Shown: positions 39,494 to 56,143, numbered from the stretch's first letter. The stretch: DNA of 64,000 bases from Bacteroidales bacterium (GCA_028709785.1 JAQUTK010000021.1:610-64609), one strand, 5' to 3'. Translations and numbers: made by a program. The notes: generated by a model from the sequence alone, not told the origin.

Positions 39494-39524
39494 GAACATA
39501 TGTTCGAAATAATACATATCTTTG
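39494..39524 (+). promoter_or_regulatory. Operator-promoter cassette A: palindrome GAACATATGTTC, GAAATAA, and -7 box TATCTTTG
   Basis: Perfect 12-bp palindrome at 39494-39505. TAnnTTTG box at 39517-39524. Lies 31 nt upstream of the DUF89 ATG. Confidence 0.75.
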
Positions 39525-39554
39525 TGCGCTTCTATACTCATTAAACCTGTTATT

Positions 39555-40409
39555 ATGATATCTGATTATCGTTGTTTTTACTGCTTTGTAAAGGCATTTG
39601 AGAAGGTCCTTGAAAGAGAGAACTTCGGAACAAAGTTGAAGCTTGAGTTTACAAAAAATCTAGCTAATCTTTATGTAACACAGAATGATCCTTTTTCAGC
39701 ACCTGCCTTTTCGAGATCTTTGCATAACTTGTTAAAGCAATACACAAATGATCGGGATTCCTATACTTCCGTAAAAAAAGAGAGTAATGACATCGCTTTA
39801 AAATTGTATCCAGAGATGAAAGAGCGAATAGTGCAGGCAGAAAATCCTTTTGATGTAGCTATAAGATTGGCTATTGCAGGAAACATTATGGATGCTGCGA
39901 TCTATGATCGTTTTGATGTAAAAAGTACCATAGATAAAACGTTGAGTTCTGCTTTTGCTATTGACCATTCCGATTACTTAAATAAGGATCTTTTGAAAGC
40001 GAAAAAAGTGCTTTATATAGGCGATAATGCCGGTGAAATCGTATTTGACAAACTCTTTATCGAAACGATAAGGCACCCTGATATAAAGTTTTCTGTTCGT
40101 GGAAAACCGGTAATTAACGACGCGACAATGGAAGATGCGGAATATATAGGGATGAGGAATGTTGCTGATGTCATTTCTAATGGTAGTGATGCTCCGTCGA
40201 CTATTCTTGATCATTGTTCAGATGAGTTTTGTGCAGTTTTTGATGAAGCGGATCTCATTATATCCAAAGGTCAAGGAAATCTTGAAGGCCTTATAAATAA
40301 TAAGAATAAAAACATCTACTTTTTGTTGATGGTCAAGTGTGATGTGATTGCCGATGCTTTAAATGTAAAAAAAGGCGATTTTGTTGTTATGAATAATCGG
40401 ATGATTTAA
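39555..40409 (+). CDS. DUF89 (ARMT1-like damage-control phosphatase) family protein
   Basis: CFYCF N-terminus, YIGDNAGEIVFDKLFIE and SKGQGNLEGL motifs typical of DUF89. Confidence 0.75.
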   Translation: MISDYRCFYCFVKAFEKVLERENFGTKLKLEFTKNLANLYVTQNDPFSAPAFSRSLHNLLKQYTNDRDSYTSVKKESNDIALKLYPEMKERIVQAENPFDVAIRLAIAGNIMDAAIYDRFDVKSTIDKTLSSAFAIDHSDYLNKDLLKAKKVLYIGDNAGEIVFDKLFIETIRHPDIKFSVRGKPVINDATMEDAEYIGMRNVADVISNGSDAPSTILDHCSDEFCAVFDEADLIISKGQGNLEGLINNKNKNIYFLLMVKCDVIADALNVKKGDFVVMNNRMI

Positions 40410-40440
40410 ATCTGTTTCTTATTTTAATAGTTGATATGTT

Positions 40441-41376
40441 ATGATTAGTTTTGGACCCGTTCCTTCAAGAAGATTAGGGAAAAGCCTTGGTATCAATAAT
40501 ATCCCTTCCGGGAAAGTGTGTTCTTATTCATGTGTGTATTGCCAGGTAGGGCTAACAAAAGATTACAGAACAAAACAGACCGAACTTTACAAACCAAACG
40601 AAATCTTTGTTGCTGTAAAAAAACATTTGAGTTTACTCAAAGAGAAAGATATGCCAGATTATCTGACATTCGTATCAAATGGTGAACCTACATTAGATCT
40701 TTATCTTGGTGATACTATTGAGAAATTGAAAGTATTGGGCATACCTATTGCAGTAATAACCAATGCTTCTTTATTATTTAATTCAAACGTACAAGATGCA
40801 CTTTGTCTGGCTGATTGGGTTTCGGTAAAAGTAGATTCAAACGATGCTACAATTTGGGAATTAATAAACAGACCGGATAAAAGTCTCGATTTTGAACGAT
40901 ATCGTGAGTCTGTCATTGATTTCTCGGCGAAATATACAGGTAAGCTGATGACAGAAACAATGTTGGTGAGTGGGATAAATGATTCACGGAATGTTGTTCA
41001 ACAGACAGCTGAATTACTTTACCAGATACAGCCAGATACAGCTTATTTGTCCATCCCGATACGGCCGCCTGCTCTCTCTACTATTAAGATTCCTTCGGAA
41101 ACTGCCATGATAGAAGCTCATCAGATCTTATCAGAGAAGAATCTTCAGGTTGAATTTTTACTTGGTTTTGAAGGAACGAATACGGGCTATACAGGTAGTA
41201 TTCTTGATGATATTGTTGATATATGCACAGTTCACCCTCTGCGAGAAGATACGATGATGGAGCTTTTAAAAAAAGACAATGCTACACCAGAGATATTAAC
41301 TTCATTGATAGAACAAAAGTACATAAAAGCTGTAAGTTATAACTCCAATACATATTACATAAGATGCTTCTTTTGA
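40441..41376 (+). CDS. Radical SAM protein
   Basis: CxxxCxxC motif CSYSCVYCQ near the N-terminus; about 310 aa. Confidence 0.8.
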   Translation: MISFGPVPSRRLGKSLGINNIPSGKVCSYSCVYCQVGLTKDYRTKQTELYKPNEIFVAVKKHLSLLKEKDMPDYLTFVSNGEPTLDLYLGDTIEKLKVLGIPIAVITNASLLFNSNVQDALCLADWVSVKVDSNDATIWELINRPDKSLDFERYRESVIDFSAKYTGKLMTETMLVSGINDSRNVVQQTAELLYQIQPDTAYLSIPIRPPALSTIKIPSETAMIEAHQILSEKNLQVEFLLGFEGTNTGYTGSILDDIVDICTVHPLREDTMMELLKKDNATPEILTSLIEQKYIKAVSYNSNTYYIRCFF

Positions 41377-41421
41377 GAAATAAGATAATCAAAGAATTTT
41401 GTGTAATAATAAGGCGAAAAT

Positions 41422-41453
41422 GAACTTATGTTTGAAATAAAAAGATATCTTTG
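41422..41453 (+). promoter_or_regulatory. Operator-promoter cassette B: GAACTTATGTTT, GAAATAA, and TATCTTTG
   Basis: Palindrome variant at 41422-41433. -7 box at 41446-41453. Confidence 0.7.
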
Positions 41454-41604
41454 TGGATGAAGTGGTTTCTGCCAATTAATTATTTCGGATGTTTTATTTA
41501 AGATAGGAGGTTTAATTATGGGATGTGACACAGGGCTTAAGCCCAGAAAAGCTGTAGTGATAACTGAAAATGTAACTAACAATCAAAAACAGGAGGAAGT
41601 AAGT

Positions 41605-42219
41605 ATGAGTTCAACAATGGTAAGACGCGAAATGCCTAAATTTTCAATGGATGCTTTTGATGCAAAGAGTGGTCATTTTACCAAAGTGTCAAGTGATGAT
41701 TATAAAGGAAAGTGGACGGTAATCTGCTTTTATCCGGCAGACTTTACATTTGTATGCCCTACTGAAATAGCTGCTATGAATGCTAAGTATGATGAGTTTC
41801 AGAGATTAGGAGTGGAAATACTGGCTGTTTCAGTTGATTCTAAATTTTCTCACAAGCGATTTGCTGAAACAGAACCAATTCTGAAAGGTTTGAAGTTGAT
41901 GATGGGTGCCGATTCTAATCAGGAAGTGAGTCGTGCCTTTGGTGTGCTTGTTGAGGAAGAAGGCGTTGCTCTGAGAGGACGGTTTCTGTTTAACCCGGAT
42001 GGCCTTTGTGTGGCTCAGGAAGTACAGGCAGATTCAGTAGGAAGAAATGTGAATGAATTCTTGAGACAAATTGAAGCATGGCAGCATGCTACAAAAACAG
42101 GTGAAGTGTGTCCGGCTGGATGGAGACCCGGAAAGAAAACATTGCCGGTTCATACGGATGCGGAAAAAATGGCCGGTCATGTAGGCGATTATATTACGCT
42201 GGAAGAGATCCTGAGTTGA
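41605..42219 (+). CDS. Peroxiredoxin (AhpC/Prx1, typical 2-Cys)
   Basis: Peroxidatic Cys in DFTFVCPTEI and resolving Cys in GEVCPAGW. The start is taken at MSSTMV after AGGAGG. Confidence 0.85.
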   Translation: MSSTMVRREMPKFSMDAFDAKSGHFTKVSSDDYKGKWTVICFYPADFTFVCPTEIAAMNAKYDEFQRLGVEILAVSVDSKFSHKRFAETEPILKGLKLMMGADSNQEVSRAFGVLVEEEGVALRGRFLFNPDGLCVAQEVQADSVGRNVNEFLRQIEAWQHATKTGEVCPAGWRPGKKTLPVHTDAEKMAGHVGDYITLEEILS

Positions 42220-42311
42220 TGCCAAACAGCAGGATGTTGAAAACAAGGATTGTCTTTTAGTATGTTTTCTTATTAACACGGATTATTTACTGTTTAAAAA
42301 TGGAGGTTATT

Positions 42312-42545
42312 ATGCCTAGATTTAATGGACAAGGTCCTCGCGGAGAGGGCTCAATGACTGGTAGAAAGATGGGGCGTTGCAATTCTGCCGTCCGTCAAAA
42401 CTCGGATGAGAAATCAAATAACAATGATGTAGCATCTTTACCTCAAAATGGAGTTACGATTTCTAATCAGGGTAGAGGATTAGGATTAGGATTAGGAATG
42501 AGAATGGGTGGCCGTGGCCGAGGTCGTGGTGGATTGAATCATTGA
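42312..42545 (+). CDS. DUF5320-like Gly/Arg-rich small protein
   Basis: MPRFNGQGPRGEGSMTGRKMGRC N-terminus and GRGRGRGG tail. Same N-terminal pattern as 47525-47713. Confidence 0.65.
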   Translation: MPRFNGQGPRGEGSMTGRKMGRCNSAVRQNSDEKSNNNDVASLPQNGVTISNQGRGLGLGLGMRMGGRGRGRGGLNH

Positions 42546-42567
42546 AGATTCGCCCAATACATAAATG

Positions 42568-42607
42568 GATACCATGCTAATCTTAATGGCATGGTATCTG
42601 TTATTTT
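42568..42607 (+). terminator. Rho-independent terminator after the DUF5320-like gene
   Basis: GATACCATGC / GCATGGTATC stem, followed by TGTTATTTT. Confidence 0.6.
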
Positions 42608-42635
42608 CTATTACTTATATATTAATGCTTGAATA

Positions 42636-43376
42636 ATGGATAATGGGATTATACTAGTTTTAATTGCTCTTTTTGCAGGTAGTGTGGGTAGTGTTTTACT
42701 TGCCGGATTATTATTGCTCCTGAATGATAAGAGACTTCAGCAAATATCAACCTATCTGGCTTATCTTGCCGGAGGTACTTTGTTGGGTGCAACTTTTTTG
42801 GGTATGATACCTAAAGCAACTTCAATGCTCAGTTCGGATATCGTTCTTGAAATAACTCTTGCAGGCATTTTGTTCTTCTTTATTTTGGAAAAAATTATTC
42901 TTTGGCGTACTTGCCGTAATAAAGAGTGCGAACGTCATCTGCAGACTGCTATACCTATGATATTAATAGGTGATGCTTTTCACAATGCGATTGATGGAAT
43001 CGTTATCGCAGCTTCTTTTCTTACATCTACTGAGATGGGCGTTTTTGTAACTCTTTCTGTCATCTTTCATGAGATACCTCAGGAACTTGGTGATTTTGGG
43101 ATTTTACTTAAAGGTGGTATGTTACGTAGTAAAGCTTTGCTTTATAATGCTCTGTCCGGGAGCACCGCTATTATTATGGGCGTTATTGCCTATTATTATT
43201 TGAATACCGCACAATCGATAATTCCTTATGCGCTTGCTTTTTCTGCGTCCAGCTTTCTTTATATTGCTTTGGCTGACTTAATTCCTGAGATGCATAAGAA
43301 AACAAAATTTAAAGAATCAGCTATTCAGATTCTCATTGTTTCTCTCGGAATTCTTCTTGTTTATCTTATCAATTAA
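42636..43376 (+). CDS. ZIP family divalent metal transporter (ZupT-like)
   Basis: HNAIDG and HEIPQELGDFGIL motifs; multi-TM profile. Confidence 0.85.
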   Translation: MDNGIILVLIALFAGSVGSVLLAGLLLLLNDKRLQQISTYLAYLAGGTLLGATFLGMIPKATSMLSSDIVLEITLAGILFFFILEKIILWRTCRNKECERHLQTAIPMILIGDAFHNAIDGIVIAASFLTSTEMGVFVTLSVIFHEIPQELGDFGILLKGGMLRSKALLYNALSGSTAIIMGVIAYYYLNTAQSIIPYALAFSASSFLYIALADLIPEMHKKTKFKESAIQILIVSLGILLVYLIN

Positions 43377-43446: not shown

Positions 43447-43477
43447 GAACATATGTTCAGAATAATCGTTATCTTTG
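43447..43477 (+). promoter_or_regulatory. Operator-promoter cassette C: GAACATATGTTC, AGAATAA, and TATCTTTG
   Basis: Perfect palindrome at 43447-43458. -7 box at 43470-43477. Confidence 0.75.
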
Positions 43478-43505
43478 TGACTTGAATTATTCATTTCAGA
43501 TTAGG

Positions 43506-44336
43506 ATGAAAATAGTTGTATTATCAGATAATAGACGTATAGATGACTCTCTGGAGATAGAGCATGGCTTGTGTATTTATCTGGAGAATGACCATGCAAA
43601 ATGCCTCCTTGATACCGGAGCATCGGATCTGTTTGTTAGAAATGCGGCAAAACTGAACGTTGATCTGGCAGCTGTCGATTATGTTTTTTTGTCGCATGGA
43701 CATGCAGATCATACAGGCGGTTTACCGGCATTCTTAAACGTCAATCAGAAAGCAAAAATTTTTCTTTCAAGAAATGTGGTTACTCAAGAGTTTTTTTCTA
43801 CCCGAAACAAGATTCATCAGATCAGTACAGACTTTGATCTGACTCCTTATTCCGAGAGAGTCATTTTTGTTGATGAACCTATGAGAATTAAGGATGATAT
43901 TCTTGTCTTCTCTGCCCTGAAAAGCGATTATCAGAAGCCAAAAGGGAATAGTACTTTGTATAAGGATGCGGGGCATGGAATGGTTCCGGATGATTTTAAT
44001 CACGAGATAGTTGTCTGTTTTGGTGTAGATAAATTACTTGTTTATACGGGCTGTGCTCACAAGGGTCTGTTAAATATCCTGGATTCGATTGTTTTAAAAC
44101 CTTCACAGCAAATAGAGACTGTGATTGGAGGTTTTCATCTGCTGGATAGTGTTCCTTTGCAGCCATTTGAAACAAAGGAAGATATTGATTTTATTGCACA
44201 GGAATTGAAGAAGAACTATTCGCACACTCGTTTTATAACAGGCCATTGTACAGGTGATAACGTGTTTCGACAATTAAAAGTAGAGCTGGGTGATCAATTG
44301 AGTAATTTCCATGCCGGTTATACATCATTATTTTAG
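43506..44336 (+). CDS. MBL-fold metallo-hydrolase
   Basis: HGHADHTGG motif. The start is taken at MKIVVLSDN. Confidence 0.8.
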   Translation: MKIVVLSDNRRIDDSLEIEHGLCIYLENDHAKCLLDTGASDLFVRNAAKLNVDLAAVDYVFLSHGHADHTGGLPAFLNVNQKAKIFLSRNVVTQEFFSTRNKIHQISTDFDLTPYSERVIFVDEPMRIKDDILVFSALKSDYQKPKGNSTLYKDAGHGMVPDDFNHEIVVCFGVDKLLVYTGCAHKGLLNILDSIVLKPSQQIETVIGGFHLLDSVPLQPFETKEDIDFIAQELKKNYSHTRFITGHCTGDNVFRQLKVELGDQLSNFHAGYTSLF

Positions 44337-44385
44337 TTGTTGATTAATGGAAAGCAAATCAATGTAATCATATTGTAGCATTCAT

Positions 44386-44829
44386 ATGGAGAAAATTAAA
44401 TTGGGTATTATTATTTGCGACAGGTATCGTACTTGTGCTGGAGGAAAATGTCTCAGAGCTTTAAAAAACAGGGAAGGAGCTTTTGCTGTTTATAAAGATC
44501 AGGAGGTAGAATTAGCCGCATATACAACGTGTGGTGGATGTCCTGGTGGGAATATAGAATATGCACCGGAAGAAATGGTTAAAAATGGTGTTACCCACGT
44601 TCATTTTGCTACCGGATTTTTAGTGGGTTATCCACCGTGTCCGTATATGGATTATTTTGAGAAGTTTATTACGGAAAAATATGGGCTGAAAGTCATCTTT
44701 GGCACTCATCCTATTCCTCAGAAATATTATCTCCAACATGTAGCTTTAAAAACATGGAACTCTAAGTTCTTGATAAAAGCGACTGAGAACACTATTTGTA
44801 ATGAAAATATACGTTTAAATTATGATTGA
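44386..44829 (+). CDS. CGGC domain protein
   Basis: TTCGGCPG motif plus additional conserved Cys (CDRYRTCAGGKC). Confidence 0.7.
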   Translation: MEKIKLGIIICDRYRTCAGGKCLRALKNREGAFAVYKDQEVELAAYTTCGGCPGGNIEYAPEEMVKNGVTHVHFATGFLVGYPPCPYMDYFEKFITEKYGLKVIFGTHPIPQKYYLQHVALKTWNSKFLIKATENTICNENIRLNYD

Positions 44830-45235
44830 ATACAATTATCAGTTCAGAGTATTATATCCCGATACCGATCGTATGGGAACGATGCATCATGCCAATTATG
44901 CAAAATATTATGAGGCAGCACGTTGGGAATTGCTGCGAAGTATTGGTGTGCCTTATAGCTCAATCGAAAAGGAGGGAGTAATGTGCCCGGTGATCCAAAT
45001 GAAGTTTAAGTTTGTCAAGACAACCGGTTATGATCAATTGCTGACTGTAAAAACGACCTTGAAAGAGATTAAAGGAGTTCGTATGTGGTTTACGTATGAT
45101 TTATATAATGAGCAACATGAATTAATCAATACCGCTGAAACTGAGTTGGCTTTTGTCGGATTAAATACATGGAAGCCTTGTAAAGCTCCGGAGGCTTTGC
45201 TAAAAGCGATTGAAAAATATGCTGTGACGAAGTAA
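44822..45235 (+). CDS. Acyl-CoA thioesterase (4HBT/YbgC hotdog family)
   Basis: YPDTDRMGTMHHANYAKYYE motif; about 137 aa. Confidence 0.8.
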   Translation: MIEYNYQFRVLYPDTDRMGTMHHANYAKYYEAARWELLRSIGVPYSSIEKEGVMCPVIQMKFKFVKTTGYDQLLTVKTTLKEIKGVRMWFTYDLYNEQHELINTAETELAFVGLNTWKPCKAPEALLKAIEKYAVTK

Positions 45236-45311: not shown

Positions 45312-45333
45312 GAACAAATGTTCATTATATTTG
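45312..45333 (+). promoter_or_regulatory. Operator-promoter cassette D: GAACAAATGTTC directly abutting TATATTTG
   Basis: Palindrome variant at 45312-45323. -7 box at 45326-45333. A half-site, TGAACAAAT, also occurs at 45260-45268. Confidence 0.6.
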
Positions 45334-45367
45334 CATCGGATTAGATGAATCGTGTAAATTTTGAGCG

Positions 45368-46492
45368 ATGGAATTATTTAATGTGTATCCACTGTTTGAG
45401 GTAAATATTGTCAAAGGGAAAGGTTGTCGAGTGTGGGATGATAAAGGAACTGAGTATCTTGATCTGTATGGTGGTCATGCTGTCATTTCAATTGGACATT
45501 CGCATCCTCATTATGTAGAGATGCTAACCAGACAGCTTCATAAGCTTGGATTTTATTCTAATTCGGTTATCAATAAAATGCAACAAGAGTTTGCAGATAA
45601 ACTGGGAGCTATTTCAGATTACGATGATTATAATCTATTTCTGGTTAATTCGGGAGCTGAAGCCAATGAGAATGCATTAAAACTAGCCTCGTTTTATAAT
45701 AACCGCAAAAGAGTGATTGCTTTTTCAAAGTCATTTCATGGACGTACTTCTGCTGCTGCGCGCGTTACCGACAATCCGATGTATACTGCTCCGTTTAGTG
45801 AAGGCTTAGACGTTACCTTTCTTACACTAAATGATGTTGATGCTGTACATGCCGAACTTTCAAAAGGGGATGTCTGCGCGGTAATCATTGAGGGCATTCA
45901 GGGTGTAGGTGGCATTCAACTGCCAACTATAGAATTCTTTCGGCAATTACGTAATGCTTGTAACCAAAATGATACGGTTCTTATTCTCGATGAAGTGCAA
46001 TCGGGTTATGGACGAAGTGGTCGATTCTTTGCTCACCAATATTCAGGAATACGTCCTGACATCATTACGATGGCGAAAGGAATCGGTAATGGATTTCCAA
46101 TGAGTGGTCTGTTGATAAATTCGATGTTTGAAGCTGTACACGGTCAATTGGGCACCACTTTTGGTGGTAATCATTTGGCTTGCGCAGCAGCCATTGCTGT
46201 ATTGGATGTAATAAAAGAAGAAGCATTGATGGAAAATGCAGCGCAAGTAGGTGCTTATCTGAAGGCTGAAATTGCCGCAATTCCTAAAATTAAAGAAGTG
46301 CGTGGACGTGGGATGATGATCGGCATTGAACTGGATCAACCGGTAAAGGAGATCCGGACAAAGCTTTTATATAAGGAGAAGGTATTTACCGGAGTGAGTG
46401 GTACTCATGTAATCCGCTTGTTGCCACCACTTTGTTTGTCAATGGACGAAGCTGATATATTTCTGGATCGTTTCAAGAGAGTATTTAATTAA
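45368..46492 (+). CDS. Class III pyridoxal-phosphate aminotransferase (acetylornithine/ArgD-like)
   Basis: GGHAVISIGHSHP, DEVQSGYGRSGRFFA, and the PLP-lysine context MAKGIGNGFP. Confidence 0.85.
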   Translation: MELFNVYPLFEVNIVKGKGCRVWDDKGTEYLDLYGGHAVISIGHSHPHYVEMLTRQLHKLGFYSNSVINKMQQEFADKLGAISDYDDYNLFLVNSGAEANENALKLASFYNNRKRVIAFSKSFHGRTSAAARVTDNPMYTAPFSEGLDVTFLTLNDVDAVHAELSKGDVCAVIIEGIQGVGGIQLPTIEFFRQLRNACNQNDTVLILDEVQSGYGRSGRFFAHQYSGIRPDIITMAKGIGNGFPMSGLLINSMFEAVHGQLGTTFGGNHLACAAAIAVLDVIKEEALMENAAQVGAYLKAEIAAIPKIKEVRGRGMMIGIELDQPVKEIRTKLLYKEKVFTGVSGTHVIRLLPPLCLSMDEADIFLDRFKRVFN

Positions 46493-46503
46493 ATAGTTGC
46501 TAC

Positions 46504-47169
46504 ATGAAAATAACAATTCATCCTGCCGGAAGATACATTCTGATTTTAGGACTCTTCCTATATATACTTGTCTGTTCTACTATTGTTTTCGCATTTAATT
46601 ACTCAGACATTTATCTACTTGTAATGGGCGGGATTGGTTTCATCTACTTTTCTTTTTTGATCTATTTCTTCCGTAATCCGCAGAGAGAAGTGGATTTAAA
46701 CAATAATATTATTTATGCTCCGGCAGATGGTAAAATTGTGGTTCTGGAAGAGGCATACGAACCGGAATTTCTGAAAGAAAAATGCATAAAAGTTTCCATT
46801 TTTATGTCCATGCTTAACGTGCATGTGAATCGATATCCTGTAAGTGGAGTTGTGAAGTATACAAAATACCATGCAGGACGCTATTATATAGCTTATTATC
46901 CAAAAGCATCAGTGTTTAATGAGCATCAATCTACTGCTATTGAAACGTGTGAAGGTACATTGATCTTAGTCAAGCAAATTGCTGGAATAGTTGCCAGAAG
47001 AATTGTGTGTTATGCTAATCCGGGCAATGAGGCAGTACAGGGTGAAGATCTCGGATTTATAAAATTTGGGTCGAGGGTTGACCTTTATTTGCCATTGGGT
47101 ACTATTGTTATGGTGAAAAATGGCGATAAAGTGAAAGGTAATAGTACAATTATTGGTTATATCAATTGA
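46504..47169 (+). CDS. psd: Phosphatidylserine decarboxylase family protein (short membrane-anchored type)
   Basis: Two N-terminal TM helices. APADGKIV, NVHVNRYPVSG, and the FGSRVD self-cleavage-type motif. Confidence 0.75.
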   Translation: MKITIHPAGRYILILGLFLYILVCSTIVFAFNYSDIYLLVMGGIGFIYFSFLIYFFRNPQREVDLNNNIIYAPADGKIVVLEEAYEPEFLKEKCIKVSIFMSMLNVHVNRYPVSGVVKYTKYHAGRYYIAYYPKASVFNEHQSTAIETCEGTLILVKQIAGIVARRIVCYANPGNEAVQGEDLGFIKFGSRVDLYLPLGTIVMVKNGDKVKGNSTIIGYIN

Positions 47170-47202
47170 GTGATAATAAATGTTGAAAATAAATAAGTGG
47201 TT

Positions 47203-47520
47203 ATGAAAATTGCAATTACGAGTACGGGAAATAGTTTGGATAGCATGTTGGATAAACGGTTTGGACGTTGTTCATATTTTGCTATTCTTGACACAGAGAC
47301 GAAAGATGTTGAGTTTATTGCAAATCCAAACAAAGAGATTGATGAAGGAGCTGGACCTGCTTCTGTTCAATTAATCGCTTCTGCTCAGGCAGAAACAATT
47401 GTGTCCGCAGAGTTTGGTTATAAAATTAAGTCTTTGTTGAATGAACTGAAAATTCAAATGATTATCGCAAAGGATCCGGAGTTATCAGTTAGAGATATTG
47501 TTAAACAATTAAATCAGTAA
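47203..47520 (+). CDS. NifX/NifB-C-terminal-like (dinitrogenase FeMo-cofactor-binding fold) small protein 1
   Basis: MKIAITS...RFGRCSYFAILD...GAGPASVQLI pattern. Confidence 0.75.
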   Translation: MKIAITSTGNSLDSMLDKRFGRCSYFAILDTETKDVEFIANPNKEIDEGAGPASVQLIASAQAETIVSAEFGYKIKSLLNELKIQMIIAKDPELSVRDIVKQLNQ

Positions 47521-47524
47521 AGTT

Positions 47525-47713
47525 ATGCCACGTATGGATGGTACCGGACCTGATGGGAAAGGTTCTCAGTCAGGACGTAAATTAGGCTTTTGTGTACAAT
47601 TATCAAAAGAGGAACTTTTGAAAAAGTTAGGACAAGGGCAGGGAAAACGGAGAAAAGCTTGTGACAGCGAAGGTGAAGCACCGGGTAGGCGATTAAAAAG
47701 TAATATTAAATAA
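47525..47713 (+). CDS. DUF5320-like small protein
   Basis: MPRMDGTGPDGKGSQSGRKLGFC N-terminus. Confidence 0.65.
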   Translation: MPRMDGTGPDGKGSQSGRKLGFCVQLSKEELLKKLGQGQGKRRKACDSEGEAPGRRLKSNIK

Positions 47714-47731
47714 CGTGTAAAAAGAATTGAA

Positions 47732-48945: not shown

Positions 48946-49789
48946 TGGCAAGGGTGGAACGGGAAAGTCAACGGTTTGTGCTGCTTTTGTTTCTGTAGCT
49001 CAATCTACGATTGCTGTTGATTGTGATGTGGATGCATCCAATCTTTATTTGATTTTCTCACCTTCATGCGACGAAGAATATGTTTTTGTGTCAGGAAATC
49101 ATGCAGTCATTGATTCTGATCTGTGTATGAATTGTGGGTTGTGCATGAGCTATTGTCGTTTTGATGCGATTTCTTCTGATAATGGTCTGATTCGTGTTTC
49201 TGAGGTTGCATGTGATGGATGTTTTTTATGTTCACGCATATGTCCGGTAAAGGCAATAAAAATGATTCCGGCAACTAAGAGCCGCATGTTTGCAGGGACC
49301 TTTCGATATGGGAAAATGGTCTATGGCCGACTGGCTCCGGGAGAAGAAAATTCCGGCAAGTTGGTTAATGTATTGCGTAATAAGGCGACTGAATATGCAA
49401 AGAACTTTGGATATAAAACAGTGATTCTGGATGGACCTCCGGGAATTGGTTGTCCGGTTATTTCAACTATTACAGGGGTTGATAAGGTTGTAATTGTTAC
49501 AGAGCCCACCATTTCCGGTTTATTGGATATGGAACGTTCTTATGAGTGTAGCAGTAAATCTTCCGGTCAGATTTATGTGATCGTAAACAAATATGATTTG
49601 AATATGGAAATAACCCATGTGATAGAGAATTGGTGCGAGGAACAAGGTGTACCGGTTGTAGCGTTATTGCCCTACGACGAACACGTAGTTGATGCAATGG
49701 TAGAAGGAATGACATTGGTAGAGTATAATGAGGAGAGTAATATCACAAAGTTGCTGCGAAATGCTTATAACTTCATCATGCAAAATTAG
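48926..49789 (+). CDS. Second MinD/ParA-type P-loop ATPase with a ferredoxin-like Cys module
   Basis: ISGKGGTGKST. CMNCGLCMSYC and CDGCFLCSRIC. The start is taken at MEIAIISG. Confidence 0.8.
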   Translation: MEIAIISGKGGTGKSTVCAAFVSVAQSTIAVDCDVDASNLYLIFSPSCDEEYVFVSGNHAVIDSDLCMNCGLCMSYCRFDAISSDNGLIRVSEVACDGCFLCSRICPVKAIKMIPATKSRMFAGTFRYGKMVYGRLAPGEENSGKLVNVLRNKATEYAKNFGYKTVILDGPPGIGCPVISTITGVDKVVIVTEPTISGLLDMERSYECSSKSSGQIYVIVNKYDLNMEITHVIENWCEEQGVPVVALLPYDEHVVDAMVEGMTLVEYNEESNITKLLRNAYNFIMQN

Positions 49790-49802
49790 TTTATAGAAAG
49801 AT

Positions 49803-50204
49803 ATGTTTGGAAGAAGAATTCGTTTAAGAGCCTTTTTTCGGAAAGGTCGTAATCATGGTTCTGAAATTATGTGTGTGTGCCCTTCATGTGGATTTACAAT
49901 GCAGCACGAAAAAGGCGTTGCATGTTTTTCTTTACTATGTCCGAAGTGTAAAACCCGCATGATAAGAAAGGATGTATTGGAAAAAGCATCTAAGAACCAG
50001 AGACAACAAATTAGCAAAGCATTAGAAAATAAGAATACTTATCCGAAAGTGAATCCGGATTTATGTATTGCTTGTGGTAAGTGTATTGTGATTTGTCCTT
50101 TTAAAGCAATAAGTATAAAGAATGGTGTAGCATATATTGACGAGCAGCTTTGTAAGAAATGTAGAAAATGCATTCATGACTGCCCTGTAGATGCTATACA
50201 ATAA
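49803..50204 (+). CDS. Zinc-ribbon protein fused to a 2x[4Fe-4S] ferredoxin
   Basis: CPSCG...CPKCK ribbon, then CIACGKCIVICP and CKKCRKCIHDCP. Confidence 0.7.
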   Translation: MFGRRIRLRAFFRKGRNHGSEIMCVCPSCGFTMQHEKGVACFSLLCPKCKTRMIRKDVLEKASKNQRQQISKALENKNTYPKVNPDLCIACGKCIVICPFKAISIKNGVAYIDEQLCKKCRKCIHDCPVDAIQ

Positions 50205-50233
50205 ATGAAAACGAGTTTAATAGAATTGTGATA

Positions 50234-51046
50234 ATGAGTAATGTGATTGAGAAAATCCCGATGATGGGTGTTAAGAATGTGATTGGGATTGCTTCCGGAA
50301 AAGGTGGTGTCGGTAAATCAACTGTCGCTGCTAACCTTGCAGTAACTCTTGCGCGGAAAGGTTATAAGACCGCATTGGTTGATGCAGATATTTATGGTCC
50401 TTCTATCCCAAAAATCTTTAATATCGAAGCTGCAAAGCCTTGTCTGGTTCCGCATGATGGAAAAGAGATGATGGAACCTATTGAAAAATATGGAGTGAAG
50501 ATCAATTCAATTGGTTTTTTTATTGATAAGGAAAAATCAATTATTTGGCGTGGTCCAATGGTTTCAAATGCTATTACCCAATTGTTTACTGAAACATACT
50601 GGGGAGAGATTGATTATATGATTATTGATTTTCCTCCGGGTACCGGAGATATTCTGATCACTTCTGTTCAGAAGTTGGATATTGATGGGGTTGTTATTGT
50701 TACAACTCCACAGGTTTTATCGATAAATGATGCCCGTAAAGGGACTGAGATGTTTGTCAATCCGAAGATTAATGTCCCTTTGATCGGTGTAGTAGAGAAT
50801 ATGTCCTGGTTTACTCCTCTACCTCATCCGGATGAAAAATATTTTATTTTTGGCAAAGGTGGGGGAGAGATTCTGGCAAAAGAATTTGACACTCGTTTAT
50901 TGTGTCAGATACCCGTTTTTAAAGAAGTAAATGAAGCTGTAGAACTTGGAGAGAATTATTTGGATTTAAAGAATGAAGAACTTCAGTTGCTATTTGAACA
51001 GTTAACAGAGGATATCATTAAAATAGAAAGGAAAAGACGGTGTTAA
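50234..51046 (+). CDS. Mrp/NBP35/ApbC family Fe-S cluster carrier ATPase
   Basis: ASGKGGVGKSTVAANLA, DADIYGPS, and the WRGPM motif. Confidence 0.85.
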   Translation: MSNVIEKIPMMGVKNVIGIASGKGGVGKSTVAANLAVTLARKGYKTALVDADIYGPSIPKIFNIEAAKPCLVPHDGKEMMEPIEKYGVKINSIGFFIDKEKSIIWRGPMVSNAITQLFTETYWGEIDYMIIDFPPGTGDILITSVQKLDIDGVVIVTTPQVLSINDARKGTEMFVNPKINVPLIGVVENMSWFTPLPHPDEKYFIFGKGGGEILAKEFDTRLLCQIPVFKEVNEAVELGENYLDLKNEELQLLFEQLTEDIIKIERKRRC

Positions 51047-51223: not shown

Positions 51224-51715
51224 TTAACGATATAAAATTTTAATACTTAATCCTTTTTGTACTGACCATCCTTCTTTGTCTGTTAAACTGATAAAAAAAT
51301 GATAGTCACCTTCATCAAAAGCTCCTACACTATTGCCAGAAGGAATTGTGATCGGAAGATTCGTTTCATACTTTCGTAAACCATTAGGGATGCTATAATC
51401 CTGAATGAATACAAAGGGATTAACAGGACTTTTAATGGGATCAAGATTCGGCTCTGTCACCTCGGTACTGTGTGAATGGTGATCAAAATTATTATGAATA
51501 TCAATGCTATATGAACCTAACTGAACATTATCCGTGAATAATGTTTTCATATAAAATGTTTCTCCAAAGTATAGCGTATCGCAATTATCGGGAAACGCAT
51601 CTTGAATGTACAAATCAATTGCCGGTTTTTGACTATCGATATCTTCATTTTTCTCGCATGAATTCAAAGCGATTAAGAGAAAGATCGAAAGTATACTTAT
51701 TTCTGCTTTTTTCAT
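51224..51715 (-). CDS. Lipoprotein, DUF4625-like (His-rich)
   Basis: Lipobox LNSC after the internal Met start. HNNFDHHSHS cluster. Lies downstream of the TonB-dependent receptor. Confidence 0.55.
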   Translation of the reverse strand: MKKAEISILSIFLLIALNSCEKNEDIDSQKPAIDLYIQDAFPDNCDTLYFGETFYMKTLFTDNVQLGSYSIDIHNNFDHHSHSTEVTEPNLDPIKSPVNPFVFIQDYSIPNGLRKYETNLPITIPSGNSVGAFDEGDYHFFISLTDKEGWSVQKGLSIKILYR

Positions 51716-51777
51716 TTGAATAATATTTAACAGCAGGTTAATAAACAACCTGCTGTACTGTTTTTTAAATATGAGAA

Positions 51778-52584
51778 TTAGTTTATTACTATCGGATAGT
51801 GACCTGAAAAAGCCCAATTTCCTCCAAAAGAGTCTTTGCTTTTTACCACGATGTAATAATCTCCAGAAGTCCATGTTGCTGTTTTGGGTGTAATATTATT
51901 ATCCAGAGCAGTACCTACAACTATATTTGCCGAAAAGCTATATGAAGTTGGATTTGTGAAGTCATGATTATGAAGTAAAGTAATGCTATTTCCATCATTA
52001 ACCTCAGCATCCGTTAGACCTTGGTCAACACGAACCAGACCAATATAGATTCCACCCAATGCTATATCATCACTTACAGAACCGGAAATACGAATAGTTT
52101 GCCCTGAAGCAAAAGATTGATTATTCGTAGGGGTTGATGTAATCGTGATTGTTGGGGCAACAGCATCAGAAGGAGTCTGAATGGTTAGGTCTTCGATTTC
52201 AATAGACGATTGCTGACCACTTTCATCGGTAACAATAAAATGGAAACAGTATGTTTCGTCAGCAACAGTAAGCGGGATGTCGATGTGTTTGTGAAATGTG
52301 GTGTTTTTCAACCCTCTGAATTCGGTATAAATACGATCGAAAGTCCACGCATTGTCGTTATCTTCCTGGTGGATTAAAACTTCAATTTTATTTATTTTTG
52401 CTTTCGCAGTTACTTCAGCTTCAACATGCAAATCGCTGCCAATAATACCGATATGGCTATTGCTTGTTCCTAATTCAACTCCGTTAATAACTGGTTTGGA
52501 TATTACTTCCTCATCTTTATCGCAAGATGAAAAAAGAACCATACAAGATGCCGCAAGAACGACAGCTATTGTTTTTGTGTTCAT
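51778..52584 (-). CDS. Lipoprotein with two Ig-like (DUF4625-like) repeats
   Basis: Lipobox FSSC. Internal duplication visible (ITLLHNHDF / FHKHIDIP blocks). Confidence 0.55.
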   Translation of the reverse strand: MNTKTIAVVLAASCMVLFSSCDKDEEVISKPVINGVELGTSNSHIGIIGSDLHVEAEVTAKAKINKIEVLIHQEDNDNAWTFDRIYTEFRGLKNTTFHKHIDIPLTVADETYCFHFIVTDESGQQSSIEIEDLTIQTPSDAVAPTITITSTPTNNQSFASGQTIRISGSVSDDIALGGIYIGLVRVDQGLTDAEVNDGNSITLLHNHDFTNPTSYSFSANIVVGTALDNNITPKTATWTSGDYYIVVKSKDSFGGNWAFSGHYPIVIN

Positions 52585-52619
52585 ACTTTTTTAAATTGTT
52601 ATTTTGAACATTACTACTC

Positions 52620-55034
52620 TTATTTGATTTTTCCTGAAAAAGGAATTGAAATATTCATTATGAGATTTCGTCCAGGCTCAGGAACGTTAATCAGCCTATA
52701 ATAGCTGGTGTGATTAAAATACTTCGTATTTAGCAGGTTTTGAACCTGCATGGATATACTTATTTTTTGATTCAAGAGTTTTACATCGCCTCCCAAACTA
52801 ATATTGATAATCTGATAGCCATCTGTGCTCTCTTCAGGAGGTACAATATTATTTTGAGGTGCTGTTATCCTATAATCTATTGACAAATACAGGTTCTCCG
52901 CAGACTTTATCTTCCGTTTGTCGTATTTGACATTAAGAATCATAGAAGCAGGGGGTGAGAATGGAAGAGTAAATCCCTTCTTTTCACCTGAAAGTTGTTT
53001 GGAATAAACAAATTCGCCCATTACACCCACTCGCAGAGACTCTATTACTTGATAATGGGCATGCATTTCCCCACCATATCGAAAGACCTCACTTTGTGTG
53101 TAATTGTAAATCTGATTTCCGTTGCCGTAAAGTCTGTCATGCTCAGATGTAGGGTTCAAATAAATGTAATTTGAAAAATAATTCAGAAATGGAGTTACCC
53201 CCATGGCAATCGCATTTGAATTGTATTCTACTCCTGCATCCAATTGATATGAAACTTCTGGTGACAAATCCGGTTTTCCCGCTTCATAACTAAAATGATG
53301 GTAATTTACTCCGTTAGCTGCTAACTCTTTAGCAATGGGCACACGAAAACTTTTACCCACATTTGTTTTGAAAGATAGCGTTGGAAGGTTGTAATTATAA
53401 CCGACAGACCATGACGTATTAGAAAAATGACGGCTTATCGCGTCAGCTCTGGTCAGATACTGTAAAGTAATATCATTATCGAGGCTGATTACAGGCGAAG
53501 AAAACCAATCATTATAACGCAATGTCTTGATATGCGTGTAATCATATCGTACACCCATCTGAATAGAACTCTTTGCCGATAACGCATACTTTGCCAGTAA
53601 AAACCCACCCACACTTAACTGTTTAAAAGCCGGAATAATAAAACCACGTCCATCAATCCGATTATCTTGATACTCGCTGTTTAAACCTACTAATAATTGA
53701 AAGAAATCATTCTTATAGTATGTAAACTTTAGATTGCTTGAATAAACATACTTCTCAAATTGACGCTCCAAATCAGCATCAAATCCCTGAGAACCGGGAA
53801 AAACAGCGGGCATGTAGCCGTGACTGACGTATTGACTCCATTCTTGTCTGAAATTACGTTGAAAGCCTAAGTCGGATTCAAATTTTAGATTCCCCCATGT
53901 ATATTCGCTTTTGTTGATAGTCTTGAAATGGTTCACTTTCTGATACGGGAAATGAATGTCATTGCTTGATTTATCATGTAAGCCTGCATCTACATTGCGG
54001 GGCTCCAAACCATGAGCATTGGCAAAAAAACCACTTTTCGTGTTTACATCACTGACAAAAAATCTGCTTAGAAATTTACGCTGAATGATCCCGAAAGAGA
54101 GATTCAGATTCTGTTCTTTTCCTGCTGTGTTTCGCAAATGATTTTTATACAATGCTGCGCGGTATGAGTAAATGTCCACACTATCGGTTGGCACCTTATA
54201 ATCTCCATAGTCCAGTATCGTTGCACGCAAATCAGCAAAGAACCATTTCTTTCTGCCGTACATTGAAATGGATGACCCTACGAGATTATTATTTGTCTTA
54301 CCTGACAGGTCAACCGTGCCTCCGATGGAATTATCAGCCGGTAAATTTCTATTTTTCAGATCAATCACTCCCCCGATGGCATCCGATCCATACATAAGTG
54401 AGGCAGGGCCTTTTATTATTTCGAGGTTGTCAACAGCATACTGATCAATTTCAAGCCCGTGGTCTTCGCCCCATTCCTGTCCTTCGTGCTTAACACCGTT
54501 TTCGACAACAACAACACGATTAAAGCCTAATCCTCTGATTACCGGTTTTGACTGTCCGGAACCAATATCAATTGTAGTAATTCCCGGCAACCTTTCCAGT
54601 GTTTTCATTAGACTACCACCCATGTTTTGTTTCAGATATTTCTCATTTACGATCTCAACATTGAGCGCCTCTTCTTTTTTTCGTGTCTTAGCATAATCAT
54701 AGGCTACAACAACCTCGTGCAAGTTAATTGAAGCTTCAACAAGTCGGGCATTATATGTTTTACTTCCGTTTATGAGTATTGTGTCAACAACAGACTTAAA
54801 ACCTATAAATGAGACTGTCACAGTATACGTACCTTTTGTAAGGCCGGATATTGTATACTTTCCCCGAGCATCGACAATCGCACCTTTTTCAATAGGAAGT
54901 AGTGTAACAGCCGCACCTGTCAAAGGCTCGCTGTTTTTGTCAACTACTGTACCCGAAAGCGAATAATTGTTTTGCCCAAAAGAAATGGCACATAAAAAAA
55001 TCATACACACTATTAGCGCATAAAACTTGCTCAT
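52620..55034 (-). CDS. TonB-dependent receptor with an N-terminal carboxypeptidase-regulatory-like domain
   Basis: Signal peptide, then YSLSGTVVDKNSEPLTGAAVTL. Plug motifs (IEIIKGPASLMYGSDAIGGVI) and a long beta-barrel. Confidence 0.85.
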   Translation of the reverse strand: MSKFYALIVCMIFLCAISFGQNNYSLSGTVVDKNSEPLTGAAVTLLPIEKGAIVDARGKYTISGLTKGTYTVTVSFIGFKSVVDTILINGSKTYNARLVEASINLHEVVVAYDYAKTRKKEEALNVEIVNEKYLKQNMGGSLMKTLERLPGITTIDIGSGQSKPVIRGLGFNRVVVVENGVKHEGQEWGEDHGLEIDQYAVDNLEIIKGPASLMYGSDAIGGVIDLKNRNLPADNSIGGTVDLSGKTNNNLVGSSISMYGRKKWFFADLRATILDYGDYKVPTDSVDIYSYRAALYKNHLRNTAGKEQNLNLSFGIIQRKFLSRFFVSDVNTKSGFFANAHGLEPRNVDAGLHDKSSNDIHFPYQKVNHFKTINKSEYTWGNLKFESDLGFQRNFRQEWSQYVSHGYMPAVFPGSQGFDADLERQFEKYVYSSNLKFTYYKNDFFQLLVGLNSEYQDNRIDGRGFIIPAFKQLSVGGFLLAKYALSAKSSIQMGVRYDYTHIKTLRYNDWFSSPVISLDNDITLQYLTRADAISRHFSNTSWSVGYNYNLPTLSFKTNVGKSFRVPIAKELAANGVNYHHFSYEAGKPDLSPEVSYQLDAGVEYNSNAIAMGVTPFLNYFSNYIYLNPTSEHDRLYGNGNQIYNYTQSEVFRYGGEMHAHYQVIESLRVGVMGEFVYSKQLSGEKKGFTLPFSPPASMILNVKYDKRKIKSAENLYLSIDYRITAPQNNIVPPEESTDGYQIINISLGGDVKLLNQKISISMQVQNLLNTKYFNHTSYYRLINVPEPGRNLIMNISIPFSGKIK

Positions 55035-55080
55035 ACTATATTCATTGAGTGAGAGAATCCGAAAAATACAAAGTAAAAGA

Positions 55081-55446
55081 TTATAATTGTACCAGATAAG
55101 GTGGTGCACGCGCAGGATTTATGGTTATGATCTGGTTATGAGGTTGAGCAATTGTACTCAGATTTAGTCTTCGGTTGATTAATACAATGAAAATAGAGAA
55201 AATCAAAAACTCCGGTAATTTGTTTATAGCAAATTTATAATTACAAATTGGACATTGATCAACTGTTGAACCTCCTATAATGACAACATCTTTCGTCTTT
55301 CCTGAAGAAAGACGAGAGATGTTGTCATCCTGAAAGCTATAAGAATGATGCCAAACAATATGAACTGATTGGAAAATTATTGGGAAAAAAAAGATTCCCA
55401 ATAAGATTAGCGCAATATGTTTTTTAATTCTGATCAATGATTGCAA
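55081..55446 (-). CDS. Small membrane protein with a His cluster, paralog of 61815-62210
   Basis: TM helix, then HIVWHHSYSF. C-terminal RAPPYL, compared with RGPPAL in the paralog. Confidence 0.5.
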   Translation of the reverse strand: MQSLIRIKKHIALILLGIFFFPIIFQSVHIVWHHSYSFQDDNISRLSSGKTKDVVIIGGSTVDQCPICNYKFAINKLPEFLIFSIFIVLINRRLNLSTIAQPHNQIITINPARAPPYLVQL

Positions 55447-55850
55447 TATTTCTTTTTACAAGTTGGACACGTACCTTTAATCAAAATGTCTATTTCATCT
55501 TCTGCATATCCATCAGGTAACTGAATTTCTTGCATCGGTACAGAATCAAGGCATTTCACAATATGACAATGATTGCAAAAGAAATGCGCATGCCCTTTTT
55601 TATCTGTTATTGATTTATCTATTGCATATTTAATTATCTGGTTATCAATGATAATCTTGTGGATGATCTTATGTTCTTCCAATGTTTTAAATGAACGATA
55701 AAATGTGGTTCGGTCAAAATTATAGGATAACTGATTTCTGATATCATTTTCAGACAAGGCCTGATTTGTAGATAACATAATATCAATAATTCCTTCTCGA
55801 CAACTGGTTCGTTTGAGATTGTGAATATTTAAAACGTCAATAGCTTTCAT
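55434..55850 (-). CDS. Fur family transcriptional regulator
   Basis: Winged-helix N-terminus (TSCREGIIDIM...TFYRSFKTLEEHKIIH). HAHFFCNHC and CPTCKK metal sites. Confidence 0.8.
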   Translation of the reverse strand: MKAIDVLNIHNLKRTSCREGIIDIMLSTNQALSENDIRNQLSYNFDRTTFYRSFKTLEEHKIIHKIIIDNQIIKYAIDKSITDKKGHAHFFCNHCHIVKCLDSVPMQEIQLPDGYAEDEIDILIKGTCPTCKKKYCNH

Positions 55851-55883
55851 TTCTGCAAAACTGATTCAAATGCAACAATGATG

Positions 55884-55899
55884 CAAACTTAGATAAAAA
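55884..55899 (-). promoter_or_regulatory. Promoter 16-mer TTTTTATCTAAGTTTG (contains -7 box TAAGTTTG), identical to 61273-61288
   Basis: Exact 16-nt match between the two Fur-family gene promoters. Confidence 0.6.
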
Positions 55900-56001
55900 G
55901 TTATTTCAAACAAATTTCTTTGTCTGCTTTTTTTATTAAATATCTCAATGGCTTCAAATGAATAAAATCACATTATTTCTTTGTAGAATAATATGGTTTA
56001 C

Positions 56002-56080
56002 CTCCATGATGAAGCACGCACTCTTTTTTTCTGATGTTGAAAGTCAGGAATGCACTCTTTCCGGGGCGATCGTCATTCTG
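56002..56080 (+). pseudogene. Relic of the 5-prime end of a BspA-type LRR gene
   Basis: CTCCATGATGAAGCACGCACTC... and ...AGTCAGGAATGCACTCTTTCCGGGGCGATCGTCATTC match 37302-37323 and about 37428-37466 of the intact LRR gene, with an internal deletion of about 100 nt and no downstream ORF. Confidence 0.65.
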
Positions 56081-56112
56081 CTCTGTTTTTTTGTTAAACC
56101 TTTTGGCTAATC

Positions 56113-56143
56113 GAACGTATGTTTGAAATAACGCTTATATTTG
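56113..56143 (+). promoter_or_regulatory. Operator-promoter cassette E: GAACGTATGTTT, GAAATAA, and TATATTTG
   Basis: Palindrome variant at 56113-56124. -7 box at 56136-56143. Lies upstream of the DUF134 gene. Confidence 0.7.

Follow-up and report, generated by a model that had tools for sequence, protein, structure and literature searches.

The stretch of DNA analysed here, referred to as the window, comprises 64,000 nucleotides from a Bacteroidales bacterium (GCA_028709785.1, JAQUTK010000021.1:610-64609), with positions counted from its first letter. In one part of it lie five transcription units on the + strand, each headed by a copy of a GAACnnnnGTTC-type palindrome, hereafter the dyad, that is built into the promoter (Table 1). 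The fifth unit begins with a gene for a small protein of the DUF134/UPF0251 family. We consider it probable that the dyad is the operator of this DUF134 protein, through which the protein would repress its own operon and the four other units, about 21 genes, as a metal-sulfur regulon of the ORP (orange protein) type. The observations that bear on this are the sites themselves, the geometry of their promoters, the linkage of the dyad to DUF134 and to the cluster genes across phyla, and fusions of DUF134 to other domains; from these, we infer the roles of DUF134 as binder, repressor, and sensor.

Table 1. Dyads, transcription units, and proposed regulator in the window
Feature	Position	Strand	Description
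Operator A	39494-39505	+	Perfect dyad GAACATATGTTC; -7 box TATCTTTG at 39517-39524; gap 11 nt; matrix score 20.2 bits
Operator B	41422-41433	+	GAACTTATGTTT; -7 box TATCTTTG at 41446-41453; gap 12 nt; matrix score 14.7 bits
Operator C	43447-43458	+	Perfect dyad GAACATATGTTC; -7 box TATCTTTG at 43470-43477; gap 11 nt; matrix score 12.1 bits
Operator D	45312-45323	+	GAACAAATGTTC; -7 box TATATTTG at 45326-45333; gap 2 nt; matrix score 28.9 bits, best in the window
Operator E	56113-56124	+	GAACGTATGTTT, in the promoter of DUF134 itself; -7 box TATATTTG at 56136-56143; gap 11 nt; matrix score 6.6 bits
Unit A	39522-41376	+	DUF89/ARMT1-like damage-control phosphatase, open reading frame 39522-40409; radical SAM protein 40441-41376
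Unit B	41518-43376	+	Peroxiredoxin 41518-42219; DUF5320 protein 42300-42545; hairpin 42564-42602; ZIP metal transporter 42636-43376
Unit C	43482-45235	+	MBL-fold protein, to 44336; CGGC-domain protein 44386-44829; 4HBT thioesterase 44822-45235
Unit D, first part	45368-51046 (whole unit)	+	argD-like class III aminotransferase 45368-46492; PS-decarboxylase family protein 46504-47169; NifX-like protein 47197-47520; DUF5320 protein 47525-47713
Unit D, middle		+	NifX-like protein 47732-48073; MinD/ParA ATPases with two [4Fe-4S] motifs each, 48070-48945 and 48896-49789
Unit D, end		+	Cys-rich ferredoxin (Fer4) 49803-50204; Mrp/ApbC 50228-51046
Unit E	56181-58098	+	DUF134 protein 56181-56603; SAM methyltransferase 56600-57229; NifX-like protein 57251-57625; C_GCAxxG_C_C protein 57622-58098
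DUF134/UPF0251 protein (Pfam PF02001, COG1342)	56181-56603	+	140 amino acids; proposed regulator

An earlier note on this DNA, made from the sequence alone, had listed the five dyads, and all five were verified in position and in sequence. The bare 12-mer with at most two mismatches occurs eight times in the window against 3.9 expected, a count that is reached in 5 of 100 shuffles and is not significant alone; a composite with the -7 box and a cross-species matrix were therefore needed. All five dyads are accompanied by a perfect Bacteroidetes primary-sigma -7 element, TAnnTTTG. The composite, that is, a dyad with at most one mismatch followed by TAnnTTTG 2-12 nt on, is found five times on the + strand and not at all on the - strand, and in 300 first-order Markov simulations it occurred 0.16 times on average and twice at most. 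Within the intergenic gaps of 39.3-58.2 kb, the sole TAnnTTTG boxes on the + strand are those attached to the dyads, so each of the only five + strand promoters of this 19-kb stretch carries a dyad. No -33 element (TTTG or TTG about 19 nt 5' of the -7 box) was found at any of the five promoters. When the 64-kb window was scanned with a weight matrix trained solely on sites upstream of DUF134 in other species, D, A, B, and C were the top four hits and E was the eighth, while the top hit after shuffling averaged 9.1 bits. The sequence of site E (GAACATATGTTT) is also found in the sister lineages L001, L002, and L057.

Two details of the earlier description need adjustment. The flank GAAATAA, which had been counted as part of the element, is indeed present 3' of the dyad in A, B, and E (AGAATAA in C), but it falls outside the conserved operator: in the matrix of other species the flank reads A(T/A)AAC/ATAAT and extends the palindrome, and GAAATAA is, to judge from that comparison, a lineage-specific spacer. 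The gap of 2 nt at site D, which had been set apart from the others, was measured correctly but is no oddity, as it belongs to a second conserved class of promoter described below. Beyond the cassette of dyad, spacer, and -7 box, the DNA flanking the window sites is unrelated.

Related loci (n = 136) were obtained from a one-genome-per-species scan with the DUF134 protein (56 loci) and from a metagenome scan (80 loci), and make up 1.40 Mb together with the window. They come from Paludibacter and other Bacteroidales, Marinilabiliaceae, Prolixibacteraceae, Verrucomicrobia, a spirochaete, and Clostridia. The same dyad is seen within the 110-130 nt that precede DUF134 in nearly all Bacteroidota and Verrucomicrobia loci, and its extended consensus across relatives is ATTATGAACATATGTTCATAAT. 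In 89 of the 127 loci with sufficient upstream DNA, DUF134 is preceded within 250 nt by a site that scores 12 bits or more, and in a further 11 the site heads a same-strand operon that contains DUF134. The result holds for the 74 loci outside the training of the matrix, of which 48 have a site within 250 nt upstream of DUF134; over the 551 kb of these loci the matrix finds 70 sites, compared with 2 in shuffled sequence, and 55 of them directly precede DUF134. At a threshold of at least 15 bits, the 1.40 Mb contains 127 sites, none of them within genes. DUF134 is preceded by 86 of these, and about 21 stand before other families of the cluster (peroxiredoxin, MBL, NifX, Mrp, DUF5320, Fer4, DUF89, and methyltransferase). 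Most of the remaining sites represent mis-called DUF134 starts or precede DUF5320, 4HBT, MBL, or Fur-peroxiredoxin genes, and a few precede genes left uncharacterised. The dyad is essentially absent elsewhere in the 1.4 Mb, and it is conserved upstream of orthologous clusters, preceding DUF134 in four phyla and in differing types of promoter.

The families behind the five dyads of the window are the families that follow DUF134 in other genomes. In most relatives, they form one operon behind DUF134, usually with one dyad; Prolixibacteraceae instead have them in several units with a dyad at each, as in the window. The regulon is independent of gene order.

The dyad is always placed within the core promoter, though its register there varies. 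Across relatives, the gap to the -7 box is 10-12 nt in 59 sites and 2 nt in 23 sites, which are also the two arrangements of the window, and the gaps seen overall are 2, 8-12, and 15-19 nt. In the 2-nt class, a -33 TTG lies 19-21 nt from the -7 box in 8 of 21 promoters (window site D is without TTG), and therefore the dyad fills the spacer. In the 11-nt class, a -33 TTG is found in 1 of 76 promoters, and the left half-site occupies its position. The pattern in Verrucomicrobia is TTGACA-N16-GAACAATGGTTC, with the dyad overlapping the -10 element, and in Clostridia a variant, CGACATATGACG, lies directly 3' of TATAAT in near-consensus TTGAC(A/G)-N17-TATAAT promoters, at the transcription start. 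In some DUF134 promoters (e.g., GAACATATGTTCatTATATTTGtGAACCCATGTTC), two dyads spaced 23 nt apart stand on either side of the -7 box (L044:2676-2710, L045:9941-9975, L116, L118, L123, and L127), an arrangement that suggests cooperative binding of two dimers.

The DUF134 protein of the window matches the Pfam model over residues 2-95 (83.7 bits against a cut-off of 27; E = 1.4e-23), and the family has 3,809 cluster representatives at 50% identity and E of at most 1e-3; according to its Pfam description, it also occurs in archaea. In the AlphaFold2 model, the core (residues 31-90) consists of three helices with a helix-turn-helix (HTH) fold, at a per-residue confidence (pLDDT) of 81-91. Its top Foldseek matches are region 4 of ECF sigma factors and the DNA-binding domain of Bacillus subtilis DeoR on its operator (probability about 1.0; root-mean-square deviation of 0.6-0.9 A over 39-50 residues; E of 0.05-0.5, the domain being small). 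A phmmer search against solved structures gave only a weak HTH match, to DeoR (E = 0.011), and Pfam Sigma70_r4 scores above its cut-off in one homologue (P0154, 31.5 bits). The C-terminal part carries a CxxC-x12-CxxC motif (C103, C106, C119, and C122), and the four cysteines are invariant. Confidence is low outside the HTH, including this Cys4 region, and the model says nothing of metal binding or dimerisation.

Two further properties of the family bear on its function. DUF134 is fused to a Nitro_FeMo-Co domain (NifX-like, also called Di-Nase) in L043, L048, and L051, as well as in 9 of 10 long representatives of the family, and a NifX-like gene is its most constant neighbour and operon partner. 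In addition, subfamilies differ in the recognition helix and in the dyad: SRQTFGR pairs with GAGCATATGCTT (L049 and L050) and SRTTVTE pairs with CGACATATGACG, each variant being found solely at the promoters of its own subfamily. As side observations, the DUF134-MBL fusion in L006 (10001-11254) may be real or a frameshift, and forms of about 190 amino acids (L036, L040, and L044) contain an extra CxCxxC...C..CxxC module that is also the N-terminus of the ferredoxin in unit D of the window.

In the literature searched, we found no paper that gives DUF134/UPF0251 a function, an operator, or a regulon, in line with the earlier note, and the dyad would be the first binding site predicted for the family. 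The proposal made there, of one dimeric regulator for about 20 genes with DUF134 as the candidate autoregulator, gains support from the cross-phylum linkage of the dyad and from the subfamily-variant dyads.

No DNA-binding protein other than DUF134 accompanies the motif from genome to genome. It is nevertheless conceivable, at what we regard as a small chance, that the dyad is bound by another regulator and that DUF134 is a mere member of the regulon; the candidates are a Fur-family, PerR-like, or LexA-like protein or an unlinked global redox regulator. The Fur-family gene at 55434-55850 shares an intergenic region of 330 bp with DUF134, and in Prolixibacteraceae the dyad precedes a Fur-family/peroxiredoxin operon. 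But Fur stands next to DUF134 only in the window, other genes intervene in the sister genome L001, and among the loci mapped gene by gene an orthologue of the window Fur is near DUF134 in L001 only. The window gene has its own 7-1-7 box, TGCATCATTGTTGCA (55871-55885), beside its -7 box, kept in L001 and without a dyad there, and the Prolixibacteraceae Fur is unrelated to it (E = 0.1-2). In at least L039, a separate PerR-like box lies downstream of the dyad, while the case of L028 is unclear; moreover, boxes of the Fur family are odd-spaced (7-1-7), whereas the dyad is even-spaced (4-4-4, extended 9-4-9). The Fur-family protein of the window was rejected as binder because of its own box, its position in L001, and its lack of relation to the Prolixibacteraceae protein. 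A LexA-like protein is suggested by the sequence itself: for Bacillus and Staphylococcus, CGAACATATGTTCG has been published as the LexA box, the GAACATATGTTC of sites A and C fits the Cheo-box operator consensus CGAACRNRYGTTYC, and in the literature searched the dyad sequence is reported solely as a LexA box. No S24/LexA protein and no SOS gene is present among the window reading frames scanned against Pfam, and the 21 genes downstream include no repair gene; the LexA/SOS reading was rejected, and the likeness of the dyad to the LexA box is sequence convergence. As for a global regulator, it would have sites at unrelated genes, and none were found in the 1.4 Mb. The analogy to ArsR/SmtB operators drawn in the earlier note finds no support and was also rejected. 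The window has no such gene, and elsewhere the exact sequence is known solely as the LexA (Cheo) box of Firmicutes. The earlier note had overlooked that the window does contain genes for metal regulators, namely two Fur-family paralogues (55434-55850 on the - strand and 61335-61745 on the + strand). Finally, the 31-nt cassette could be a duplicated promoter module that spread inside this genome as the cluster broke up, with an incidental palindrome and no dedicated regulator. A, B, C, and E do share the GAAATAA/AGAATAA spacer and the TATCTTTG/TATATTTG boxes beyond what an operator needs across species. Yet the information profile of the cross-species alignment has only the palindrome conserved and the spacer variable, the dyad is found in two registers and also in promoters outside the Bacteroidota, and the flanks outside the cassette are unrelated, which makes this explanation highly improbable.

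If DUF134 is the binder, the question becomes what binding does. We propose that a DUF134 dimer would bind ATTATGAAC-N4-GTTCATAAT-type palindromes in the core promoter through its sigma-70 region-4-like HTH, lying over the -33 position (11-12 nt before TAnnTTTG) at A, B, C, and E and in the -33/-7 spacer (2 nt before TAnnTTTG) at D. There it would block RNA polymerase and repress its own operon and the four other units. The dyad varies in placement inside the polymerase footprint, and therefore repression by occlusion, with negative autoregulation, is the predicted mode. The opposite sign is unlikely in our estimate, but it has a coherent form, in which a region-4-like dimer at -33 recruits or stabilises RNA polymerase at promoters with a -7 element only. 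Sigma region 4 reads -35 elements such as GGAAC, the HTH of DUF134 is structurally closest to sigma region 4, and 75 of the 76 promoters of the 11-nt class are without a -33 TTG, the left half-site occupying the position; the ORP genes of Desulfovibrio, too, are under positive control (PMC8359166). However, activators normally need one fixed position, and the dyad lies at gaps of 2, 8-12, and 15-19 nt, overlaps the -10 element in Verrucomicrobia, is at the transcription start of near-consensus promoters in Clostridia, and in some promoters occurs twice around the -7 box. In addition, all five -7 boxes of the window are perfect TAnnTTTG.

The earlier note had treated the regulon as undescribed, but it is not functionally anonymous, since it has a counterpart in the Desulfovibrio ORP system (PMC6345978, PMC8359166). 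The ORP complex is an anaerobe-specific assembly of metal-sulfur proteins of unclear function (PMC6345978). Our proposal is that the regulon would be the Bacteroidales counterpart of this system, with a core of MinD-ferredoxin ATPases, NifX-like/Di-Nase proteins, and an Mrp Fe-S carrier; this core would be joined by peroxiredoxin, a ZIP importer, and DUF89, radical SAM, MBL, CGGC, DUF5320, and C_GCAxxG_C_C proteins. The window Mrp matches the P-loop half of the NCBIfam model MrpORP (244 bits, model positions 3-253), and the second NifX-like protein of unit D matches the Di-Nase half (115 bits, model positions 265-365); no two-domain MrpORP is present, the halves being separate genes that both score under the equivalog cut-off of 450 bits. 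Both ATPases of unit D match CbiA/ParA plus Fer4 domains, as expected of Orp3/Orp4, and the three NifX-like PF02579 proteins of the window are, by sequence, single-domain Di-Nase proteins like Orp8.

In Desulfovibrio vulgaris Hildenborough, the orp operons are activated by sigma54, IHF, and OrpR (PMC8359166; Fievet et al. 2011 as cited there). OrpR is an enhancer-binding activator of PAS-AAA+-HTH architecture that acts on the site GGGCGYRTTTTGCGCCC, is reported to be restricted to delta-proteobacteria, and senses redox potential via a Cys-ligated [4Fe-4S] cluster (PMC8359166). No AAA+ enhancer-binding protein appears in the Pfam map of the window, and matches to the sigma54 -24/-12 element are not enriched there (31 against 27.9 expected), with none at the five promoters. 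Control of the sigma54/OrpR type was rejected on these grounds, which therefore point to DUF134 as the candidate ORP-type regulator outside delta-proteobacteria. DUF134 appears to regulate ORP-type genes there, with a wider regulon.

The families of the units are broadly as listed in the earlier note, except that the ZIP gene of unit B had been overlooked. The DUF89 gene of unit A probably starts at the ATG at 39555, and the MBL gene of unit C at the ATG at 43506. Between DUF5320 and ZIP in unit B lies a strong, terminator-like hairpin with a 16-bp stem and a T-rich tail, which could be a terminator or an attenuator that decides the co-expression of ZIP. Whether ZIP is co-transcribed with unit B is uncertain because it has no -7 box of its own. 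Rfam gave no match in the whole window, including the unit leaders and this hairpin, and a riboswitch or other known RNA at these places was rejected. The argD-like aminotransferase and the PS decarboxylase that head the ORP-like operon of unit D (45368-47169) look like housekeeping enzymes and seem to have been recruited in this lineage only.

DUF134 would probably respond to a metal-sulfur cluster or a metal, to its state or its availability, and would perceive it via the invariant Cys4 motif, via the NifX-like protein encoded in its operon, or via the two together. Clusters of the Mo-Cu-S, [3Fe-4S], or thioferrate type are bound by Di-Nase domains (PMC6345978), and DNA binding by DUF134 is therefore proposed to respond to a cluster or metal. 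The frequent NifX-like fusions suggest that DUF134 may sense metal-sulfur clusters, and the NifX-like protein of unit E, which has a Cys/His-rich tail, is proposed as its sensory partner. Loaded (reduced) DUF134 would bind DNA, and oxidation or loss of the cluster would derepress the regulon. A broader generalisation, which we regard as speculative and rather doubtful, is that DUF134/UPF0251 proteins may be widespread one-component sensors of metal-sulfur clusters (Fe-S or Mo/W-Cu-S), with a fused or adjacent Di-Nase domain, a Cys4 ribbon, or both, and the ancestral master switch of ORP genes, for which OrpR/sigma54 would be a later replacement. If this is true, the NifX-like fold gains a signalling role besides the carrying of cofactors.

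Several points weigh against the interpretation of DUF134 as a cluster-sensing repressor of these units. The canonical upstream dyad is absent in 24 of the 127 loci, about 10 of which carry weak or variant dyads, and in the window the lowest score among the five sites is that of E, which belongs to the regulator itself. The covariation of helix and dyad rests on few lineages and is unclean in Verrucomicrobia, where GTGC occurs in one half-site only. The dyad takes the place of the -33 element in the 11-nt class, an arrangement also expected of an activator that substitutes for sigma region 4. The role of the Cys4 motif could be no more than structural, as a zinc ribbon. A peroxiredoxin would be expected to be induced by oxidants, while Desulfovibrio switches off its oxygen-labile Fe-S (ORP) proteins as the redox potential rises; the regulon mixes the two kinds of protein, so the direction of the signal is not deducible. 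As for membership, the aminotransferase and PS decarboxylase stand behind the dyad in this lineage alone (0 of 136 related loci), and ZIP sits behind a strong hairpin. It is important to note that binding by DUF134, the direction of regulation, and the signal are all predictions from comparative sequence analysis.

Divergent from DUF134 lies a - strand operon (51224-55885) that encodes the Fur-family protein (55434-55850), a membrane protein of 121 amino acids, a TonB-dependent receptor (52620-55109), and two DUF4625 proteins. Directly behind its promoter (TAAGTTTG) comes the 7-1-7 repeat, with a weaker copy at 55854-55868. Both copies are kept in L001, and they probably form an operator through which the Fur-like protein itself controls a metal-uptake operon. 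The second Fur-like paralogue is 35% identical to the first and is followed by DUF6769 and YHS-domain genes, and the promoters of both share TTTTTATCTAAGTTTG. In L001 (7192-9850), the Fur operon is separated from DUF134 by a leucine-rich-repeat protein and a CAAX protease; this pair stands upstream of unit A in the window (37297-39302), and because of this rearrangement Fur and DUF134 are back to back in the window. In Prolixibacteraceae, the dyad lies about 100 nt upstream of a Fur-family gene and peroxiredoxin (L028:543, L036:6321, L038:4972, and L039:5410), the Fur gene being confirmed in L028 and L039 and not called in L036. L039 also has a second, downstream promoter with the PerR-like box (TATAATAATTATT), which suggests that DUF134 and a PerR-like protein either form a cascade or exert control jointly.

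Near the second Fur-like paralogue, HlyD and outer-membrane efflux genes (58175-59810) are apparently disrupted by an IS110-family transposase (60015-61078), and 58175-62753 looks like a metal-efflux locus broken by an insertion sequence. The region 24040-34714 resembles a mobile or defence island, with a DnaB-like/Toprim primase-helicase (24792-26627), DUF7833 and HU-HIG proteins, an HATPase_c_3 protein (30137-32053), an OLD-family AAA_15+TOPRIM nuclease (32499-34379), and a fragment of a type I restriction subunit (34379-34714). Paralogous BspA-type leucine-rich-repeat proteins are encoded at 3773-6894, 28813-29841, and 37297-38457; in the first of these regions, two genes for proteins of 292 amino acids each (3773-4651 and 6016-6894) flank a paralogue of 442 amino acids.

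The DUF134/UPF0251 family, which has thousands of members in anaerobes, is defined by a domain of unknown function, and the ORP, NifX-like, and MinD-ferredoxin clusters are among the conserved gene sets that mark anaerobic life, with regulation known in Desulfovibrio only. A predicted operator, a regulon of five promoters, and a candidate sensory partner make both problems experimentally tractable. The regulon also links orphan families (peroxiredoxin, the ZIP importer, Fe-S carriers, DUF89, CGGC, DUF5320, and C_GCAxxG_C_C), which suggests one module of metal-sulfur and redox homeostasis. The use of a sequence identical to the Firmicutes SOS box by an unrelated, predicted regulator matters for the automated annotation of regulons.

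Compared with known systems, the predicted regulator is of a familiar kind, an autoregulated repressor with palindromic operators; what would be new is an uncharacterised regulator family tied to enigmatic anaerobe-specific genes. The Rrf2-type repressors, SufR, and PerR/Fur have operators at genes for Fe-S assembly, metal uptake, and peroxide defence and sense a Cys-bound cluster or metal. Like IscR, NsrR, and RsrR of the Rrf2 type, SufR, and PerR/Fur, DUF134 is proposed to be a small, dimeric, autoregulated repressor that acts on core-promoter palindromes; unlike them, it combines a sigma region-4-like HTH with a zinc-ribbon-like Cys4 motif and has no Rrf2, ArsR, or Fur domain. It shares the region-4-like HTH with sigma factors but is without region 2, and it resembles SorC/DeoR-type proteins in the HTH but is without a sugar-binding domain. 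The dyad has the core GAAC-N4-GTTC of the Firmicutes LexA (Cheo) box, and both would be repressor operators within promoters; the genes downstream of it in the window, however, are not SOS genes, and it travels with DUF134 across phyla. The closest counterpart of the regulated genes is the Desulfovibrio ORP complex (Orp3/Orp4, Orp8, and Orp9 = MrpORP; PMC6345978), which the window parallels with its two MinD/ParA ATPases with two [4Fe-4S] motifs, its NifX-like proteins, and Mrp. Unlike that complex, the window regulon adds peroxiredoxin, ZIP, DUF89, radical SAM, MBL, CGGC, DUF5320, and C_GCAxxG_C_C proteins, as well as a methyltransferase, the aminotransferase, and the PS decarboxylase. DUF134 resembles OrpR in being encoded beside ORP genes, in having a palindrome at each ORP unit and a regulon that is essentially the ORP cluster, and its invariant Cys4 motif recalls the Cys-ligated cluster of OrpR. 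In contrast to OrpR, it is a region-4-like protein of 140 amino acids associated with Bacteroidetes primary-sigma promoters, in a geometry that points to repression.

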